DNA of 24,000 nucleotides from Alphaproteobacteria bacterium (GTDB lineage Bacteria; Pseudomonadota; Alphaproteobacteria; SP197): positions 3,040,072 through 3,064,071 of the forward strand of contig OY763008.1 in the NCBI GenBank assembly GCA_963666905.2, in the 5' to 3' direction. The stretch's first letter is position 1. Every line of letters begins with the position of its first letter. Positions 2,444-10,742 of this stretch are shown here, one piece after another. The translations under genes were made by a program, and so were the position numbers. The notes under the pieces were generated by a model. The model was not told where the DNA came from. It saw nothing but the letters and a program-made list of their open reading frames with translations, and did not search any database.

Positions 2444-2842
2444 TCAGCCCAGCGTGACGGCCAGCTCTGCCTCGACGATTCTGCGATCCCGGGTCAACAG
2501 CGTCGCGCCGAGCACCCGGGCGGTTGCCACCAGAATGCGGTCCGCGGGGTCGCGATGAAAGGAGTCCGGCAACGACGCCACCTCGGCAGCCACGGCCGGT
2601 GAAATGCCCTGGCGCCGCACCAGAGGCGGCGCAACCGCCTTCTCCAACCACTCGCGCAGGGGAATTGTCAGGCGAACACGCCCCAGACTGTGCAGCATGG
2701 CCACTTCCCAGAGCGATATGTCGGAGACCAGCAGGGGCGAATCGCCGTCGGCGGCCGCAATCGCATCCTGTTGACTGCGAGACAGCCGACCGCGGTCTCC
2801 GTGCCACCAGAGCAGGATGTGCGTATCGAGCAGGAACGTCAC
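2444..2842 (-). CDS. vapC: PIN-domain ribonuclease toxin (VapC family)
   Basis: Reads FLLDTHILLWW...SDISLWEV...DPADRILVATA...LLTRD, with PIN acidic residues in the usual order. The GTG at 2842 overlaps the antitoxin TGA as GTGA (4-nt coupling). The ORF track's alternative GTG is at 2860. Confidence 0.85.
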   Translation of the reverse strand: MTFLLDTHILLWWHGDRGRLSRSQQDAIAAADGDSPLLVSDISLWEVAMLHSLGRVRLTIPLREWLEKAVAPPLVRRQGISPAVAAEVASLPDSFHRDPADRILVATARVLGATLLTRDRRIVEAELAVTLG

Positions 2843-3078
2843 CGCTTCAGGCTGTCCCACTGCTCTTCCGGGAACACCGGTTCCATGACATCGCCGAGGA
2901 TAACGACCGTCCCGTCCAGTTCAGCCTGGGGATACCGGTTCTCCTCGCCGGTCGGCGGCGACAACTCGGCGACCGGCCGACCGCGTTTCAGAATCACGAC
3001 CCTTTCACCGGTCGCATGAACGCGGTCGAGGATGGCGAGGCACCTCGCCTTGAAGTCGGATGCGTTGATCCTTTCCAT
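2839..3078 (-). CDS. Phd/YefM-type (prevent-host-death family) antitoxin paired with VapC
   Basis: The 3' part of ORF 2839..3585 reads MERINASDFKARCLAILDRVHATGERVVILKRGRPVAELSPP... This is the typical Phd/YefM N-terminal pattern (..FK..L..V..GE.V.I.KRG.PVA.L.P). Alternative in-frame ATGs are at 3093 and 3108. The rest of the 248-aa ORF is Arg-rich shadow sequence. Confidence 0.8.
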   Translation of the reverse strand: MERINASDFKARCLAILDRVHATGERVVILKRGRPVAELSPPTGEENRYPQAELDGTVVILGDVMEPVFPEEQWDSLKR

Positions 3079-3109
3079 ATGACCAGTTTTCATGACCGGT
3101 CCGGTCATG
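3079..3109. promoter_or_regulatory. Candidate TA operator: perfect 9-bp inverted repeat plus one extra half-site immediately upstream of the antitoxin start
   Basis: CATGACCGG-T-CCGGTCATG lies at 3091-3109, and an additional ATGACC half-site lies at 3079-3084. Type II antitoxins commonly autoregulate through palindromes at their promoter. If the true start is 3093 or 3108, the site overlaps the coding sequence. Confidence 0.35.
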
Positions 3110-3229
3110 TCAAGGAGCCCATTGTCTTCGGGACCCGAATTCAAGTCCGGTTTCCGGTCGAACGGAACCTCGCACAGCCGGCCCGGGATGGTGAAGTGGA
3201 GCGGGGACTCAGTACAGGGCCGCGGCAGG

Positions 3230-3697
3230 AACCGCCGGAACGAGCCCCGGCCGGTCCTGCTCAGCAGGTCGGCGCTGGCCGCCGCCGGGGTGCCCCGCGG
3301 CCTGCAGCGCGAGCGGGCCATGGACGCCCTCGCCTCGGGCGGCCTCGAGGCCCTGGCGAGGGTTCCGGCGCGTGTGCTCTCCAGGGGAGAGCCGCAGCGG
3401 CTGGCCCTGGTGCGCGCCATGGCGACCCGACCCGACGCGCTTTTCCTCGACGAGGCGACGGCCAACCTCGATCCGAACTCCACCCTGGCGATCGAGAACC
3501 TGGTCCGCAGCGCGCGCGAGCTCGGCACGCCCGTCCTCCTCGTCACCCGCGACCTTGCCCAGGCGCGCCGCGTCGCCGAGCGCATCCTCTACCTCAACGA
3601 CGGCATCCTCGAGGCGGATTCCCGGGCTCCGGACTTCTTCACCGCTCCCCCCACGAGGCGTGCCCGCGCCTTCGTCGAGGGCCGCCTGACCGACTGA
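3230..3697 (+). pseudogene. 5'-truncated, decaying second copy of the tupC-like ABC ATPase gene (no Walker A region)
   Basis: 3445-3697 aligns base-for-base with 1-253. Upstream, the frame still reads ..LSRGEPQRLALVRAMATRPDALFLDEAT, so the signature LSGGE is degraded to LSRGE. The H-loop His is replaced (VTHD in copy 1, VTRD here). No P-loop is present anywhere upstream, and the 5' boundary is approximate. Confidence 0.7.
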
Positions 3698-3934
3698 GCC
3701 GGAGACATGCCCGCCATGACACGCCGATTCCTCTGCGCCCTGATTGCCGCATGCGCCGTTGCCGGCGGCGCCGCCGCCGAGCGCTCCATCGTGGTGCAGT
3801 CCACCACCTCGACCCAGAACTCAGGTCTCTTCGACAACATCCTTCCCCGGTTCACGGACGAGACCGGGATCGTCGTCAAGGTGGTCGCCGTCGGCACCGG
3901 ACAGGCCCTGCGCAACTCGATGAACGGCAACGGC
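3445..3934 (+). repeat. Direct repeat copy B (offset 3444 bp from copy A); homology probably continues upstream to about 3230
   Basis: Same alignment as copy A. The right breakpoint is sharp at 3934/3935. Confidence 0.9.
3707..3934 (+). pseudogene. 3'-truncated second copy of tupA (first ~76 codons only)
   Basis: 3707-3934 aligns with 263-490 of the intact tupA. Homology stops abruptly after ..NSMNG(N/D)G. The ORF then runs into unrelated sequence (LSSKRCLLLSCKG...) up to 4063. Confidence 0.8.
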
Positions 3935-4554
3935 CTCTCGAGTAAAAGATGCCTTTTGCTGTCCTGCAAAGGGCCGCCGGATGACGGCGGTGGGTCGCTC
4001 ACAAGCGACTGCCTGAAAACACCCTGCCTGGAAAGAAAACGTGACCGTCGCCCGGCACCATGAGGCCGTCCTTGCCACAGGGCAGAGGCGCCGGCCAAAC
4101 CAGCCGCCTCCAGACGGCGCGGCCCGGGGGAGCCCGGCCTGGCGGTCGGGGTGCCACTGAGAGGCCCGGAACGCGTGGCGGCCATGCCACAGTGAAGGTC
4201 CAGCTGCCGCGTTCACACGGTTGGACAGAAGGACTGCCCGCTCACTGCTGCCCTCCGGCCGGCAACCCAAACCAGCCGGCAGGGAGCGCTCCTGCAGATA
4301 CCCGGGAAAGAACAAGGGCACAACCTCAGCAGGGCGAGTCTCCCGAATCCACTACCACGTGTAGCCACGTTGCACCAAACTACACAATGCAGCCAGGTGG
4401 TGCTTCAGCCGAACTGGGCCGTTATCCTGCTGCGAGACAGGTTGTGCGGTCTTCAGGGGATGATGTACACTTTGAACGCGCCGGCGAGCAGGCATCGCTG
4501 CAACTCGTGCTTCTTCTGTTGTTCGTGGACCGGCGGAACGGAGAAGAGCCAGCA
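3935..4554. other. About 620 bp gene-free leader/junction region upstream of the low-GC cassette
   Basis: No frame is protein-like; all ORFs here are Arg/Pro/Gly-rich shadows. The region is GC-rich up to about 4350 and then GC falls. It contains hairpins (GTCGCT-CACA-AGCGAC at about 3995-4010; GCCGGC-N11-GCCGGC at about 4257-4279). The motif CCAAACCAGCCG occurs twice (about 4096 and about 4267). A CCACGT x2 direct repeat and a GTGTAG/CTACAC inverted repeat lie at 4355-4385. Confidence 0.5.
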
Positions 4555-5148
4555 ATGGAAATGATTCAGGGGGCCGAGTGGGTCGTGCTGGCGATCCTGG
4601 CAGTGGGTTTTCTGATCAGCATGTACCTCATAGTGTCCGTTCAGGGCGACCTCCGATTGCGAGAGGAATCTGGGCTGAATACGGACCAGCAAGCCACGGC
4701 TATGTTCATTGGGTTGCTGAACCAGACTCGTCGCCAGATCGACATTCATGATGACGGCAACGACTTTGAGGGTTCGATGTACAACAACCCGGAAGTCATT
4801 GCCGCATTGCAAGAGCGGATACGGAAACACAACATCAGGGTTCGATGTCTCTTCAATGATGCGGACCAGCCGCTAAAGCTGCTTGAGCTCGCACGCTCGG
4901 AGGAATTCCAAAGTCACGTCAAGATCTGGTACTTGAACGGCGGCAGACAGGAGCCGGACACCCACTACAAGATTGTGGACGGTGGGCGGCTCGTTCACCT
5001 TTCGCGGCACAGGCACGGAGCCAGCGAGCGAGGGTATCGACTCCGCAAGGCTTCGCGGTGGTGGGAATTCCGCACCCGCGATCGAATCAGCAAGCAGTAT
5101 CGGGATCACTTCGAACACGGTCTGATGAACGCCGTTCAGGTTGCTTAG
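4555..5148 (+). CDS. Membrane-anchored PLD-like (HxK motif) protein, function unknown
   Basis: The ATG at 4555 is preceded by GGAGAAG (4540-4546). The N-terminal TM helix is WVVLAILAVGFLISMYLIV. The soluble domain shows a PLD/Nuc-like layout: LLNQTRRQIDIH..., then PEVIAALQERIRKHNIRVRCLFND, then THYKIVDGGRLVHLS (HxK then D, with shorter spacing than canonical HxK(x)4D). GC is about 50%. An in-frame alternative ATG at 4387 lacks an RBS. Confidence 0.65.
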   Translation: MEMIQGAEWVVLAILAVGFLISMYLIVSVQGDLRLREESGLNTDQQATAMFIGLLNQTRRQIDIHDDGNDFEGSMYNNPEVIAALQERIRKHNIRVRCLFNDADQPLKLLELARSEEFQSHVKIWYLNGGRQEPDTHYKIVDGGRLVHLSRHRHGASERGYRLRKASRWWEFRTRDRISKQYRDHFEHGLMNAVQVA

Positions 5149-5151
5149 ACC

Positions 5152-5529
5152 ATGCAGGAAAGTATTGAAGCAGCGGCGTTGGCGCTGCCTGCAACGCCGC
5201 TGTACGTCGTCGTCGCCATCTTGGTGGCAGTCGCCGCAATGACGACAGCAGATGTTCGGGACAAGGCACGGCTGCTGCCCAATAGCGGCGTGAACGCCAT
5301 GGCCGTGACCCTGCTCGCAGGATCCTGGATCGCGGTATGGCATATCATTCTTGCGATGGTCGGTGGGAACGACTTCTACACACTATCCGCAGAGGCGGTC
5401 CTGGAGATGATCGCTCATTGTCTGGTGCTGGTTTTGCTGCTTATCGTCGTGTCTATCTGGTATTGGGCCGTGGCCATTTACAAGGAAACACCCGCAGGGA
5501 TGCCCACGAATCCGGCGGCCAGCCAATGA
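5152..5529 (+). CDS. Small integral membrane protein (about 3 TM helices), no recognisable family
   Basis: It starts 3 nt after the upstream stop. Three hydrophobic spans are present (LYVVVAILVAVAAM, AMAVTLLAGSWIAVWHIILAMVG, IAHCLVLVLLLIVVSIWYWAVAIY). It shares the low-GC composition of its neighbours. Confidence 0.6.
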   Translation: MQESIEAAALALPATPLYVVVAILVAVAAMTTADVRDKARLLPNSGVNAMAVTLLAGSWIAVWHIILAMVGGNDFYTLSAEAVLEMIAHCLVLVLLLIVVSIWYWAVAIYKETPAGMPTNPAASQ

Positions 5530-5864
5530 ACAGCCCGCAGGTCGTTTCGTGGGGTGGATACGACTTCACCAGCTACGACCCCACACAAACAAGCTGGAAC
5601 GAAGTACCCGGCGTCTACATCTTCGCGGGGACAAGCACAGATGGGCGATGGTGGCAAGCCAAGTATGTCGGACAAACCGTGTCGTTCAAAACACGTTTGG
5701 GTTCGGAGAACATCAAGCACGAGCGCTGGCCAGAGGCGCGTCGTCTGGGTGCGACTCACATTCATGCACGCGTGGTGCATGACGACATTGGGCGGAGATC
5801 ATTGGAAGTGATGCTGATCGAGACATACAACCCTCCGATGAATGCCACGCCTCTGCCGCCGTAA
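5526..5864 (+). CDS. Small stand-alone GIY-YIG nuclease-domain protein
   Basis: Its ATG overlaps the upstream TGA (ATGA at 5526-5529). Motifs appear in the right order: GVYIF (GIY), KYVGQT (YIG), FKTRL (Arg), and LEVMLIETYNPPMN (catalytic Glu and Asn). The protein is 112 aa with no extra domain. Confidence 0.75.
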   Translation: MNSPQVVSWGGYDFTSYDPTQTSWNEVPGVYIFAGTSTDGRWWQAKYVGQTVSFKTRLGSENIKHERWPEARRLGATHIHARVVHDDIGRRSLEVMLIETYNPPMNATPLPP

Positions 5865-6347
5865 GCCACTCACCCGCCTACCAGGCCTCCTCAACACTGA
5901 CTGTGCCTTCTGCGTACCGACCGTGAACTGACAGCCGAGCGCACGGAGCGCCATTTCGATCTGGCCGATGTGTGAACGGTGATCAAGGTCGATCAGCCAG
6001 TGTACCGCGCCTTCCGATAGGCCGAGCCGAAGAGCAAGTTCGGTCTTGCCAACACCTTGGGTGCGCATCGTGTCGTAGAGCGCCATCTTCGCGGCAACGA
6101 GCGCCGGCAGCGGGACCGCAGTCCGCCCGTGCGCCGGCGATGGCCGGGGTATGGCGCGCCCTGCGCCGACGTAGCCGCCGAGAGCGGCGGCAAGGCAGTC
6201 CGGGGCCTGCGCCAGCGCTTTGGCCTCCGTTTACTCTTCTGTCAACGCCTTCGGCACATCCGGAAAGGTAACGAGGATCGAACCGTCCTCCTGCGGCACC
6301 AGTTCCGCGGGCTGTATCGGCCCTCGTGTCGTCCCGCTTTCATCCAT
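5799..6347 (-). pseudogene. hicB: HicB-family antitoxin gene interrupted by an in-frame TAA; no hicA partner
   Basis: From the ATG at 6347 (AAGGGA RBS upstream), the minus strand reads MDESGTTRGPIQPAELVPQEDGSILVTFPDVPKALTEE*TEAKALAQAPDCLAAALGGYVGAGRAIPRPS...VPLPALVAAKMALYDTMRTQGVGKTELALRLGLSEGAVHWLIDLDHRSHIGQIEMALRALG. This is the HicB N-domain plus a C-terminal HTH. The stop is TAA, the complement of 6231-6233, in frame with ORF 5799..6086. The C-terminal about 35 codons run antisense into the GIY-YIG gene. Confidence 0.7.
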
Positions 6348-6430: not shown

Positions 6431-8104
6431 TCACAGGGGCACAAGGGCGTCGGCGAGGCGGGGGAGCATGAGGGCGTCGAACGGTTTCTCGATGGCCGGG
6501 CTGTCGTGGCCGAAGCGGAAGCAGGTGATGCCGTTGGGGAGCGGCTGGATGACCTGGCCGCCGTATCCCCGCATGGTGGCGATGCGCATGTCGCGGCCCG
6601 AGCGCGTCGTCATGGGAAGCTGCCAGTAGGCCATCCGGTAGGTGACCTCGCGGCCGTCGGCGGTGAAGGTTCCCGTGGGCAGTCCTCCCGTCCACTCGCA
6701 CTTCAGGCAATGTTCGGCGAGCTGGCGGTCGAGCAGCTGCTCGCCCTCGTGGTTTCCGAGGTTGGACAGCAGCCGGCCGAGCTTCGCCACGTCGTCGAGA
6801 CCGAGAAACAGTCCGAAGGCGGTGAGCGGCAATCCCTGCCGTCCGTCCGCCTCGATGGTGCGGTTGATGTCCACCGTCTCCATGCCGATCGCCGAGAAGA
6901 CGTCTTCGGCGATCATGGCGAAGAGGTCCGCGCCGTCTCCCCGGTGGCGCTTCCACAGCGCGTCCATGGCCGCGCCGGCGACGAAGAGGTCCTGGTCCCT
7001 GTAGCGGGCCACCGTTCCCGGCCCCCAGGGATAGGAGGGCGCCGCGAAGGCCTCGGCGAGCTTGTCGGCCCGGGAGGGGGCGGCGTACCACCTCTGGTAG
7101 GCGCGGGTGCTCTCGCCCGTGAGAGCGCGGTCCGTCACGTTGTCGACGTGGATGTCCGGGGGCGAGGCGTTCCTCCCGGCGGTGCCGATGCCGGTCGCCA
7201 TGTCGAGGCAGTGGCGGATCGTGACGTCCCTCCAGCCGTCGTGGGCCGCCGTGACGTCGAGGACGTCCGCAATGCGCGTGTCGGCGATCCCGGGGCCGAG
7301 CAGGCGGGCGAGCCGCAGGAGCGCCGTGGTGCCGAACGCCGCCTTGGTGACCGACCAGACGCCGAAGCTCGCGGCGCGGGGGAAGGGCCACGGGCCGTGG
7401 CGCGTCCTTATCGGCGTGGCGTAGATCCGCCCGTCCACCGCGAGGCCGCTGACGATGCCGCCCGCCGGAGGATCGAGAAAGCTGTCGGGAACCAGGCCCT
7501 CGAGCTCCGCCATGGAATGAAGGGGCCACGGCTTGCCGCTCCGTGGCGTGATTGTCTGGCGGCGGGGATGGAAGGCGGCGTCGAGCGCGCCCCACAGATC
7601 GAGGTCCTCGGGGAGGTGGTCGGGCTGGGTCTCGGTCACCAGCTCGACGAAGAGCTCGCTCACCTGCTCTCCGTCCCAGGCGAAGCGGGCGAGCCCCAGG
7701 TGGCTCTCGTTCTCGCGCTCGCACGAGAGGCGGAAGGGAAAGCACGCCCTGTCGCGGCCGTCCGGCGACGACCAGAGCCGTCCCTCGAAGGCCCTGATGT
7801 CCCAGTAGCTCGCCGGATCCGGCCTGCGGTGGAAGACGTCCGCAGGGACGAGCGCGCCGCCTTGGGTGGCGAAGGCGAGGTCGACGCGCGGGAAGCGGTC
7901 CGGCCTGCCGTCCAGGGGGAAGTGCAGGCGCACCCGCCCGTCGGCGGCCTCGAGGACGGCACCCTCGATGGCGAGCACGCCGTCGAGCGGCCGGCGGGGC
8001 GGAGCGGCGTCGGCAGGCGGCATGAAGGCGGCGGCGGCGAGCGGGCCGCGGAGATGGCGCCTGCCGGTGTTGCCGTCACGGCCGTTCATGCTATCGGGTC
8101 GCAT
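6431..8104 (-). CDS. Secreted serine hydrolase of the beta-lactamase/transpeptidase-like superfamily, with an N-terminal domain of about 230 aa of unknown function
   Basis: 557 aa. The N-terminus is signal-like (GRRHLRGPLAAAAFMPPADA|AP). The SxxK motif is SVTK, within FGVWSVTKAAFGTTALLRLA. The frame is consistently protein-like. Confidence 0.8.
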   Translation of the reverse strand: MRPDSMNGRDGNTGRRHLRGPLAAAAFMPPADAAPPRRPLDGVLAIEGAVLEAADGRVRLHFPLDGRPDRFPRVDLAFATQGGALVPADVFHRRPDPASYWDIRAFEGRLWSSPDGRDRACFPFRLSCERENESHLGLARFAWDGEQVSELFVELVTETQPDHLPEDLDLWGALDAAFHPRRQTITPRSGKPWPLHSMAELEGLVPDSFLDPPAGGIVSGLAVDGRIYATPIRTRHGPWPFPRAASFGVWSVTKAAFGTTALLRLARLLGPGIADTRIADVLDVTAAHDGWRDVTIRHCLDMATGIGTAGRNASPPDIHVDNVTDRALTGESTRAYQRWYAAPSRADKLAEAFAAPSYPWGPGTVARYRDQDLFVAGAAMDALWKRHRGDGADLFAMIAEDVFSAIGMETVDINRTIEADGRQGLPLTAFGLFLGLDDVAKLGRLLSNLGNHEGEQLLDRQLAEHCLKCEWTGGLPTGTFTADGREVTYRMAYWQLPMTTRSGRDMRIATMRGYGGQVIQPLPNGITCFRFGHDSPAIEKPFDALMLPRLADALVPL

Positions 8105-10000: not shown

Positions 10001-10040
10001 CGGATGCCTCCCCGCCGTCGCCTTGAGGAAACTCTACGCC

Positions 10041-10742
10041 TCATCCGCGAGGCGGGGAAGGCGCGGCCCGGCGCTCCCGCCGGGCGGCGCGTAGCAGGGC
10101 GTGCATGGGACCCCGCGTCTGGCCGATCGAATCGAGGACGGCGACGGTGTTCTCGAGATAGTCGATGCAGGGCCCCAGGGGCCCCTCGGCGCGGCCGATG
10201 TGGCGGGCCTGGACGGCGAAGGGAACGCGGTGGGCGTAGCGCATGTAGGCCCGGTTGATGGCGAAGCTCACCGCCGGCACCGTGATATCGTCGAGTTCGG
10301 CCCGCACCCAGACGGGGACGTAGGCGCCGGCGAACATCTCGCGGCGCCACAGGATCCTCGTCTCGCTCTCGATCATGCCGGCCTCGATGCGCAGGGCCAT
10401 GCCCCTGACCGCGCCGCCGGGCTCGAGGCCCAGCGACAGGCCCGGGAAGTCCGGGCTGCCGCGGCCGAGATGGGTCCACAGGTTGAAGCGGCGGTGCCAG
10501 CCCCTCACCAGGGCCCGGTGGCGGCCGGCGACGCGGCAGGCCGGATTCCACATCAGCGAACCGAAGCCGAAGACGAAGAGGTCCTCGCCCGGAGGATGCG
10601 GGGCAAGGTGCCGCAGGCGCCCCTCCTCCCTCTCGTTCTCGGGCGTCATGACCACGAGACCCGCCTCGACCGCCTCCTCCATGTGGCGCGACAGCGTGCC
10701 TGCGACGAGGACCTCGCGCGTGATCTCGTAGCGCTCGTTCAC
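10041..10742 (-). CDS. chaC: ChaC-like gamma-glutamylcyclotransferase
   Basis: This is the C-terminal part of ORF 10041..12143. It carries VFGFGSLMWNP (the ChaC YGSL-type motif) and GGAVRGMALRI...E..ILWRREM. The proposed GTG start at 10742 overlaps the upstream TGA (GTGA). Later ATG starts are possible. Confidence 0.8.
   Translation of the reverse strand: MNERYEITREVLVAGTLSRHMEEAVEAGLVVMTPENEREEGRLRHLAPHPPGEDLFVFGFGSLMWNPACRVAGRHRALVRGWHRRFNLWTHLGRGSPDFPGLSLGLEPGGAVRGMALRIEAGMIESETRILWRREMFAGAYVPVWVRAELDDITVPAVSFAINRAYMRYAHRVPFAVQARHIGRAEGPLGPCIDYLENTVAVLDSIGQTRGPMHALLRAARRERRAAPSPPRG

Follow-up and report, generated by a model that had tools for sequence, protein, structure and literature searches.

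The window analysed here, a stretch of 24,000 nucleotides (nt) from an Alphaproteobacteria assembly (GCA_963666905.2, contig OY763008.1, positions 3,040,072 to 3,064,071), carries on its forward strand a compact cassette of three genes. Gene 1 (4555-5148, with an ATG at 4555 and a TAG at 5146-5148) encodes a protein of 197 amino acids (aa), gene 2 (5152-5529, ATG at 5152 and TGA at 5527-5529) a protein of 125 aa and gene 3 (5526-5864, ATG at 5526) a protein of 112 aa. The three genes are translationally coupled, as genes 1 and 2 are separated by a gap of 3 nt (ACC) and genes 2 and 3 overlap by 4 nt (ATGA), an arrangement that had been claimed in an earlier reading made from the letters alone (called here the sequence-only reading) and that the coordinates of the open reading frames (ORFs) confirm. 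Hydropathy analysis assigned one transmembrane (TM) segment to the product of gene 1, three to that of gene 2 and none to that of gene 3. Regarding base composition, the same reading had placed the cassette about 20 GC points below its flanks on the basis of hand counts over 60 nt. These counts were accurate (exactly 53.3% and 46.7%) but the contrast had been overestimated, since the cassette (4378-5876) has a GC content of 57.3% compared to 69.7% elsewhere in the window, about 12 points lower.

To determine whether the three ORFs are maintained together, homologous loci (numbered L001 and onwards) were compared in genomes and metagenomes. In L001, L002, L003 and L038, whose gene 1 products are 45-88% identical to that of the window, the trio shows the same organisation, with proteins of 197/198, 125 and 106-108 aa, a 3-nt gap and a 4-nt overlap. 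Of the 29 loci that have a close gene 1 of full length, about 21 gave all three genes by tblastn, with frameshifts in a few cases. Furthermore, the identities to the window copies are correlated among the three proteins (r = 0.95, 0.92 and 0.88 over 17 loci), which indicates that the three genes are co-inherited and diverge in step. The trio put forward as a unit by the sequence-only reading is thus kept together in about three quarters of the loci with a close gene 1. The ratios of non-synonymous to synonymous substitution rates (dN/dS), which range from 0.10 to 0.18 for gene 1, from 0.13 to 0.39 for gene 2 and from 0.06 to 0.39 for gene 3, point to purifying selection on all three genes. Gene 1 homologues form 117 clusters at 90% identity, almost all of 194-200 aa, and gene 3 homologues form 37 clusters; because of these clusters and of dN/dS values below 0.4, the ORFs of the cassette are considered to be real genes and not chance ORFs.

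The product of gene 1 is a member of the Pfam family DUF7931 (PF25559; 32.9 bits for a gathering cutoff of 27, E=6e-8, residues 45-153). This is its sole Pfam match, and most of its homologues carry the same precomputed annotation; at 50% identity the whole family falls into 304 clusters, with lengths of 180-215 aa in nearly all of them. A literature search found no paper mentioning DUF7931, and searches of PADLOC, NCBIfam and PHROGs returned no significant match for gene 1. Hydropathy locates the TM helix at residues ~9-29 (nt 4579-4641 of the forward strand), followed by a single domain with the PLD/HKD fold. The latter assignment comes from an AlphaFold (AF2) model computed from 26 homologues (pLDDT 87.5), for which a Foldseek search against the PDB retrieved NucT (E=6e-8) and Nuc (E=4.6e-7, TM-score 0.70). 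Further matches were BJ-TSA-9, PLD3, Zucchini, PssA, PLD1/2, bacterial PLDs, SauUSI and NgoAVII, and the top ~40 matches in the PDB all have the PLD fold. A viral structure library again yielded PLD-fold proteins, including the poxvirus envelope lipase. At the sequence level, no match to the Pfam models PLDc and PLDc_2 was obtained at E<=1, the PDB sequence-profile search gave noise only, without any PLD chain, and alignment of the gene 1 family with the R46 Nuc protein by hhalign reached a probability of 1.9% and was mis-registered. As the sequence-profile searches and hhalign gave nothing, the link of gene 1 to PLD enzymes is a structural one. The proposal that gene 1 encodes a TM-anchored, PLD-like protein was therefore upheld by the structure search but not by the Pfam PLDc models or hhalign, and gene 1 is predicted, from hydropathy and the model, to encode a protein that crosses the membrane once and carries a PLD/HKD-fold domain.

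A putative active-site motif lies at nt 4963-5010 of the forward strand and reads H137-Y-K139-I-V-D142-G-G-x3-H-L-S150-R-H152, followed by E158/R159. Its general form in the family is H137-x-K139-x2-D142-x7-S150-x-H152...R159, which is a variant of the HxK(x)4D(x)6G(S/T)xN signature that is two residues shorter and in which a histidine replaces the asparagine. The HxK..D motif (THYKIVDGG) noted from the sequence alone is therefore part of a longer conserved signature, but this signature is a shortened HKD variant and not the canonical one. Among 149 diverse family representatives, H137 is present in 142 of 146 and D142 in 146 of 146, and in the same set K139 is found in 135 (plus 7 with R), S150 in 135 (plus 8 with T), H152 in 138 and R159 in 136. 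A DDG motif (residues 66-68), Y76 and F100-N101 are also near-invariant in these representatives. In the model, the motif sits on a beta-hairpin (strands 137-141 and 146-151) and, from the order of the secondary-structure elements, we infer that it maps onto H94/K96/S109/N111 of Nuc. Among the variants, P0050 has a QYK sequence and is a lone gene 1 with a PIN/Phd pair in place of the partner genes, and P0053 has neither the H nor the K of the motif.

The product of gene 2 is integral to the membrane, with three TM helices, and has a conserved tail at its C-terminus, YKETPAGMPTNP. The family alignment shows that the three helices are kept and that the tail is cytoplasmic-looking. This agrees with the sequence-only description of a 125-aa protein with three TM segments. 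No significant match to gene 2 was found in Pfam, NCBIfam, PHROGs or PADLOC, the top PADLOC score being a '2TM effector' with E=0.056.

Gene 3 encodes a stand-alone GIY-YIG domain (G29-V-Y31 ... Y47-V-G49 ... R57 ... E94 ... N106) preceded by a short N-terminal beta-hairpin with invariant W9 and F14. Comparison of the gene 3 family profile with the PDB retrieved the GIY-YIG domain of UvrC (1ycz, E=1.8e-5) with the catalytic residues aligned; we take their UvrC counterparts to be Y19/Y29/R39/E76/N88. No substitution of Y31, Y47, G49, E94 or N106 occurs in the 21 homologues, and R57 is kept in at least 90% of them. The AF2 model (pLDDT 88) matched only UvrC N-terminal domains in Foldseek, with a probability of 1.0 and a TMt of 0.70. 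By single-sequence searches, gene 3 matched no Pfam family at E<=1, GIY-YIG models included, and gave weak Cho/UvrC matches in NCBIfam (E 0.006-0.01) and a partial match to PDC-S14 in PADLOC (E=1.3e-5 over ~50 residues). The bare GIY-YIG domain with all core residues recognised by the sequence-only reading is well supported by the profile match to 1ycz and by Foldseek, and gene 3 is predicted to encode a minimal GIY-YIG nuclease in which no catalytic residue is missing.

To delimit the cassette, its DNA was compared with that of its closest relative (L001/L004, from an Alphaproteobacteria metagenome-assembled genome (MAG)). DNA similarity detected by blastn (86%) is limited to positions 4378-5876 and thus includes, on the forward strand, a leader of the cassette (4378-4554) and a short 3' edge (5865-5876), the alignment ending at 5876. 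The leader contains a promoter-like element (TTGTGC at 4442-4447, a 16-nt spacer and TGTACA at 4464-4469) and a ribosome-binding site, GGAGAAG (4540-4546), before gene 1, all on the forward strand. The aligned leaders of relatives show TTGaca-N16/17-TAtAcA at the matching position, ~95-110 nt upstream of the start codon; a generic promoter scan made no call for the element at 4442-4469. The conservation of this element suggests that each copy of the cassette carries its own putative promoter. No terminator-like site was found downstream of gene 3.

The borders are devoid of the usual marks of mobile elements. Neither direct nor inverted repeats bounding the cassette nor an attC site were found, and in the loci compared (L001-L003, L038 and others) no shared recombinase travels with it. 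A position next to a tRNA gene is common for genomic islands; here, a tRNA gene lies less than 1 kb upstream in just 3 of 28 loci. The GC content of the cassette stays near 55% although the host flanks span 47% to 70%, and it is below that of the flanks in 19 of 21 loci. Taken together, these sequence comparisons suggest that the cassette is a self-contained, horizontally mobile three-gene operon that moves between bacterial classes.

Several further observations concern the leader and the upstream region. The 5' untranslated region (4470-4554, ~85 nt) is conserved in the leaders of L001, L005, L007-L013 and L030 and contains a GAGAGCAGG ... CTTCTGTTCTC complementarity, to which RNAalifold assigned -3.1 kcal/mol with almost no covariation. 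A regulatory RNA in the leader was considered and dropped, given this weak RNAalifold result and no Rfam match inside the leader; the sole Rfam match in 4200-6100 is Lambda_thermo at 4226-4295, outside the leader and at chance level (E=0.99). An in-frame upstream extension of gene 1, the ORF being open from 4060, was also rejected and is considered to be non-coding because indels in relatives break the frame and because the ribosome-binding site and the ATG at 4555 are conserved. The three tRNA genes are located 340-1000 nt upstream of gene 1 in L005 (9585-9659, Thr), L011 (9570-9659, Ser) and L015 (6105-6180, Thr). The other 25 scanned loci have no tRNA gene near gene 1, the tRNA-Pro gene of L023 being ~2.2 kb upstream.

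Regarding the hosts, all 26 genome hits are MAGs, assigned to Gammaproteobacteria, Pseudomonadales, Alphaproteobacteria, Paracoccaceae and one Latescibacterota, the Latescibacterota carrying distant versions of the cassette. Several of these MAGs have isolate labels that may be those of sponge-microbiome projects. Gene 1 was found neither by tblastn in 72,556 plasmids and 50,697 phage genomes nor by a pattern scan of IMG/VR. Only two of 241 million metagenome records matched, LXNI01 and MKWU01, which are sponge metagenomes (Sarcotragus foetidus and Aplysina aerophoba) from a study that found sponge microbiomes to be enriched in defence genes (Horn et al., PMC5099237). The sponge origin is verified for these two metagenome contigs alone.

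The genes found next to other copies of the cassette were then considered. They include a HinfI-type restriction-modification system, an Eco57I-like restriction-modification enzyme, an nSTAND protein, a RES toxin, integrases, full-length PsyrT and PsyrA (E=8e-298 and 4e-150), Druantia genes (a split DruE, E=0, and DruD, E=1e-127), BrnT/BrnA and MazE-type antitoxin genes and a DNA methylase. In L001, a full-length PDC-S14 protein, a PADLOC candidate, adjoins the trio (E=3e-112), and toxin-antitoxin pairs lie near gene 1 in L006, L007 and L030. The defence-gene-rich setting anticipated by the sequence-only reading is thus found at other loci, with restriction-modification, Druantia, PsyrTA, toxin-antitoxin and integrase genes in about eight contexts counted without a genomic background, and this neighbourhood is that expected for a defence gene. 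A Pfam 'DruA' match in L003 was discarded, as it was not confirmed by PADLOC.

Some of these loci deserve separate mention. The cassettes with the P0072 gene 1, found in the related assemblies of L031, L032/L033 and L034, are identical and occur in three downstream settings, with an nSTAND protein, with integrases and a RES toxin, or with Druantia DruD/DruE; the P0072 island turns over very quickly. In L026 (9950-13308), a pair formed by a distant gene 1 and a three-TM gene lies beside genes encoding a TIR_2-domain protein (E=1e-15) and a Mob_Pre/relaxase, which suggests that the pair is carried on a mobilisable element. L036 (7001-8388) encodes a remote gene 1 homologue of 225 aa with HLK as its motif; next come a small TM protein and then an 89-aa protein (MNRTYVVSYDL...), so that the third position of the operon may vary. 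The sequence pattern of this last protein is reminiscent of Cas2-like small nucleases, but Pfam and NCBIfam gave no match. L020, from a Gammaproteobacteria MAG, encodes two gene 1 paralogues 2 kb apart (7538-8026 and 10001-10444, 37% and 66% identical to the window copy), with neither gene 2 nor gene 3 detected nearby by tblastn.

In the window itself, an intact-looking type II toxin-antitoxin pair is located ~1.3 kb upstream of the cassette on the reverse strand (2444-3105), in which the gene of a 138-aa PIN toxin (Pfam E=3e-13) overlaps that of a Phd/YefM antitoxin. It is followed by a truncated ATP-binding cassette (ABC) ATPase gene (3092-3697) and by a 76-aa fragment of a TupA-like binding protein (3707-3934) that is 92% identical to the start of an intact gene at 263-1090. 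These remnants belong to a direct repeat, positions 1-300 of the window being 98% identical to 3445-3744 over 300 nt with an extension to ~490 and 3934. The duplicated unit comprises the end of an ABC-transporter ATPase gene and the first 76 codons of the gene of a TupA-like tungstate-binding protein, intact at 263-1090 and truncated in the copy at 3092-3934; it may be longer, as the repeat begins at the window edge. On the other side, a 95-aa ORF (5799-6086, reverse strand) that matches no Pfam or NCBIfam family looks by eye like the helix-turn-helix half of an antitoxin. Its last ~25 codons are antisense to the 3' end of gene 3 and cross the cassette border at 5876, and insertion of the cassette has probably replaced its original end. 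Ordinary chromosomal genes lie downstream of this ORF. Another ORF, at 6431-8104 on the reverse strand (557 aa), has a strong coding signal (a GC content at third codon positions of 0.92) and no Pfam or NCBIfam match at E<=0.01. The location of the cassette between toxin-antitoxin modules and rearrangement scars, as described from the sequence alone, is therefore correct upstream, with the PIN/Phd pair and the duplicated and truncated transporter genes, but not downstream, where the 'TA-like' ORF has no family match.

How the three proteins relate to characterised systems was then assessed. Nuc from pKM101/R46, NucT from Helicobacter pylori and Zucchini/MitoPLD have the same alpha/beta PLD fold as gene 1 (E 6e-8 to 5e-7, TMt 0.65-0.70) and, like it, carry the HxK-type motif once in each chain, so that a dimer is implied for the active site. 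A further resemblance between Zucchini/MitoPLD and gene 1 is the succession of an N-terminal membrane anchor and a single HKD domain. By contrast, no sequence relationship with these enzymes was detected, the gene 1 motif is two residues shorter with N replaced by H, and gene 1 has additional invariant DDG, Y and FN motifs and usually a small multi-TM partner. Regarding gene 3, the N-terminal domain of UvrC/Cho has the same fold and the catalytic Y, Y, R, E and N in common with it (~28% identity). However, gene 3 is devoid of the UvrB-binding, RNase H-like and HhH domains of UvrC, forms a stand-alone protein of 108-112 aa with a beta-hairpin of its own, and is a gene of a mobile cassette and not a repair gene.

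PLD nucleases are established defence effectors (PMC12191111), and PLD/HxK domains act against foreign DNA in BfiI, NgoAVII, SauUSI, the END nucleases and DrmC of DISARM. These effectors are soluble proteins joined to domains for DNA recognition, helicase activity or the sensing of modifications, whereas gene 1 has a TM helix only, and it matched no PADLOC model, that of DrmC included. PDC-S14 is a single-gene candidate that combines GIY-YIG and DUF4357; gene 3 matches only the GIY...YIG core of its 280-320 aa profile and, because gene 3 is without the rest of the protein, this match reflects superfamily similarity and not membership.

The best mechanistic parallel is SNIPE (Saxton et al., Nature 2026; PMC13190303). 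This GIY-YIG nuclease resides in the inner membrane, cleaves the DNA of phages while it is being injected and becomes toxic once its tether is removed. It consists of one polypeptide made of a TM segment, DUF4041, which is a DNA/tape-measure-binding domain, and GIY-YIG, and its topology is shown with the N-terminus outside and the C-terminus inside (PMC13190303). In both SNIPE and the cassette, an N-terminal helix anchors a nuclease to the inner membrane, which is a prediction in the case of gene 1, and both include GIY-YIG chemistry. They differ in that the three proteins of the cassette contain no DUF4041, the anchored enzyme is of PLD fold, the GIY-YIG protein is separate and soluble, and a three-TM protein is present in addition. 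As no homology beyond the GIY-YIG superfamily was detected with Pfam and PADLOC, the two systems are analogous and not homologous. In PADLOC-DB 2.0 (2023), no system model was matched by genes 1 and 2, and gene 3 gave only a weak match. The sequence-only reading, which recognised no named system in this architecture, was right in this respect; the concept is nevertheless less unprecedented than it assumed, because membrane-bound nuclease defence has been published for SNIPE (PMC13190303). What the cassette presents is a set of known effector folds in an undescribed, co-evolving and mobile three-gene architecture.

We propose that the cassette is an inner-membrane-tethered two-nuclease module of defence against phages or mobile DNA, a reading to which we give a probability of about 0.5. 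Genes 1 and 3 encode predicted phosphodiesterases with conserved active sites. The gene 1 protein, whose N-terminus is short, acidic and without positive charge, would on account of this uncharged N-region probably insert with its N-terminus outside and its C-terminus inside, so that the PLD domain would face the cytoplasm. As the single-HKD enzymes Nuc and Zucchini dimerise, it may likewise dimerise, the two chains building a single active site on the cytoplasmic side of the membrane. Gene 2 would provide a scaffold or a gate that recruits the soluble GIY-YIG protein, and the complex would cut DNA entering through the membrane by phage injection or conjugation. By the logic of SNIPE, membrane tethering would keep the nucleases off the chromosome.

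Several points weigh against this proposal. No recognisable sensor domain was found in the three proteins. Both flanks of the gene 1 helix are acidic, and charge thus leaves the topology unsettled. Approximately 7 of 110 close gene 1 homologues are without the His of HxK. The substrate of gene 1 could be a phospholipid instead of DNA, because the PLD fold includes lipid enzymes (PssA, PLD, poxvirus envelope lipase). There is no cultured host among the genome hits, and the association with defence islands amounts to the eight or so contexts mentioned above, counted without background. Only genes 1 and 2 are present in L007, L011 and L012, and only gene 1 in L006, L022 and L030; in several of the partial loci, toxin-antitoxin genes or an insertion sequence element stand where the missing genes would be. 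Finally, the distant relatives of gene 1 (31-39% identity; L026, L029 and L036) are followed by a small multi-TM gene and no GIY-YIG gene. Since these relatives keep only gene 1 and the small TM gene, the core would be the anchored PLD-fold protein with its TM partner, and the GIY-YIG nuclease appears to lie outside this ancestral core and to have been added in the clade that includes the window.

The best-surviving alternative, which we regard as unlikely, is that of an abortive-infection or addiction toxin, in which the PLD enzyme would attack membrane phospholipid such as cardiolipin, or the GIY-YIG enzyme the host DNA, with gene 2 as immunity protein or gate and cell death or growth arrest as the outcome. 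The presence of phosphatidylserine synthase, PLD1/2, bacterial PLDs and poxvirus envelope lipases among the PLD-fold matches, together with an active site predicted beside the membrane, is compatible with an attack on lipid, but NucT and Nuc, which are single-HKD nucleases, rank first among the structural matches. Likewise, the cassette occurs among toxin-antitoxin pairs in the window, L006, L007 and L030, and its persistence and spread without a recombinase fit addiction. However, the gene 1 of L006 stands alone with its HYK intact and without gene 2, which is unexpected if gene 2 is an essential antidote, and the cassette encodes no autoregulatory DNA-binding antitoxin, no DNA-binding domain being found in the three proteins with Pfam and NCBIfam.

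Less probable still is an accessory role in sponge life unrelated to defence, such as degradation or salvage of extracellular or periplasmic DNA, a function that has been proposed for NucT and Nuc, DNA uptake or remodelling of membrane lipids. The sponge origin of both metagenome matches, the restriction of genome hits to MAGs, the fact that the nearest folds belong to nucleases associated with the envelope (NucT and Nuc), and a distant gene 1 homologue standing alone among metabolic genes in L035 would fit such a role. It is opposed by gene 1 having neither a positively charged signal-anchor N-region nor a signal peptide, by gene 3 having no export signal, by flanks that vary and in which defence and mobile-element genes abound instead of metabolic operons, and by the frequent decay of cassette copies.

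A selfish mobile cassette, whose spread would be driven by the GIY-YIG protein as a homing-type endonuclease with genes 1 and 2 as cargo, seems very improbable, for although GIY-YIG is a classical homing-endonuclease fold and the cassette has sharp borders with no integrase, transposase or flanking repeats and is found at unrelated positions in many genomes, gene 3 consists of the catalytic domain only, with no domain for DNA binding or targeting, its nearest relative is UvrC and not a homing enzyme, it is the gene most often lost whereas genes 1 and 2 persist, it is absent from distant relatives, and no conserved target site is evident.

If the cassette is indeed a defence system, it would represent a new architecture, in which a PLD-fold enzyme anchored in the membrane is combined with a three-TM partner and a GIY-YIG nuclease that is free, and would join the very short list of membrane-acting immunity at the point of DNA entry, shown experimentally only in 2026 with SNIPE. 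With a length of 1.5 kb and a putative promoter of its own, it is simple to synthesise and test. For DUF7931, a family of ~300 clusters, the present analysis provides a first functional hypothesis and a testable putative active site (H137, K139, S150 and H152). More tentatively, the DUF7931 clade as a whole may form a new class of envelope-resident nucleases that destroy DNA at entry, to which a clade of sponge symbionts would have added the GIY-YIG protein, in an independent SNIPE-like invention that would use different components, would distinguish self from non-self by location and would be shared horizontally among unrelated sponge bacteria. The occurrence of the cassette in uncultured MAGs across bacterial classes would allow it to serve as a marker of gene exchange among the members of sponge microbiomes.

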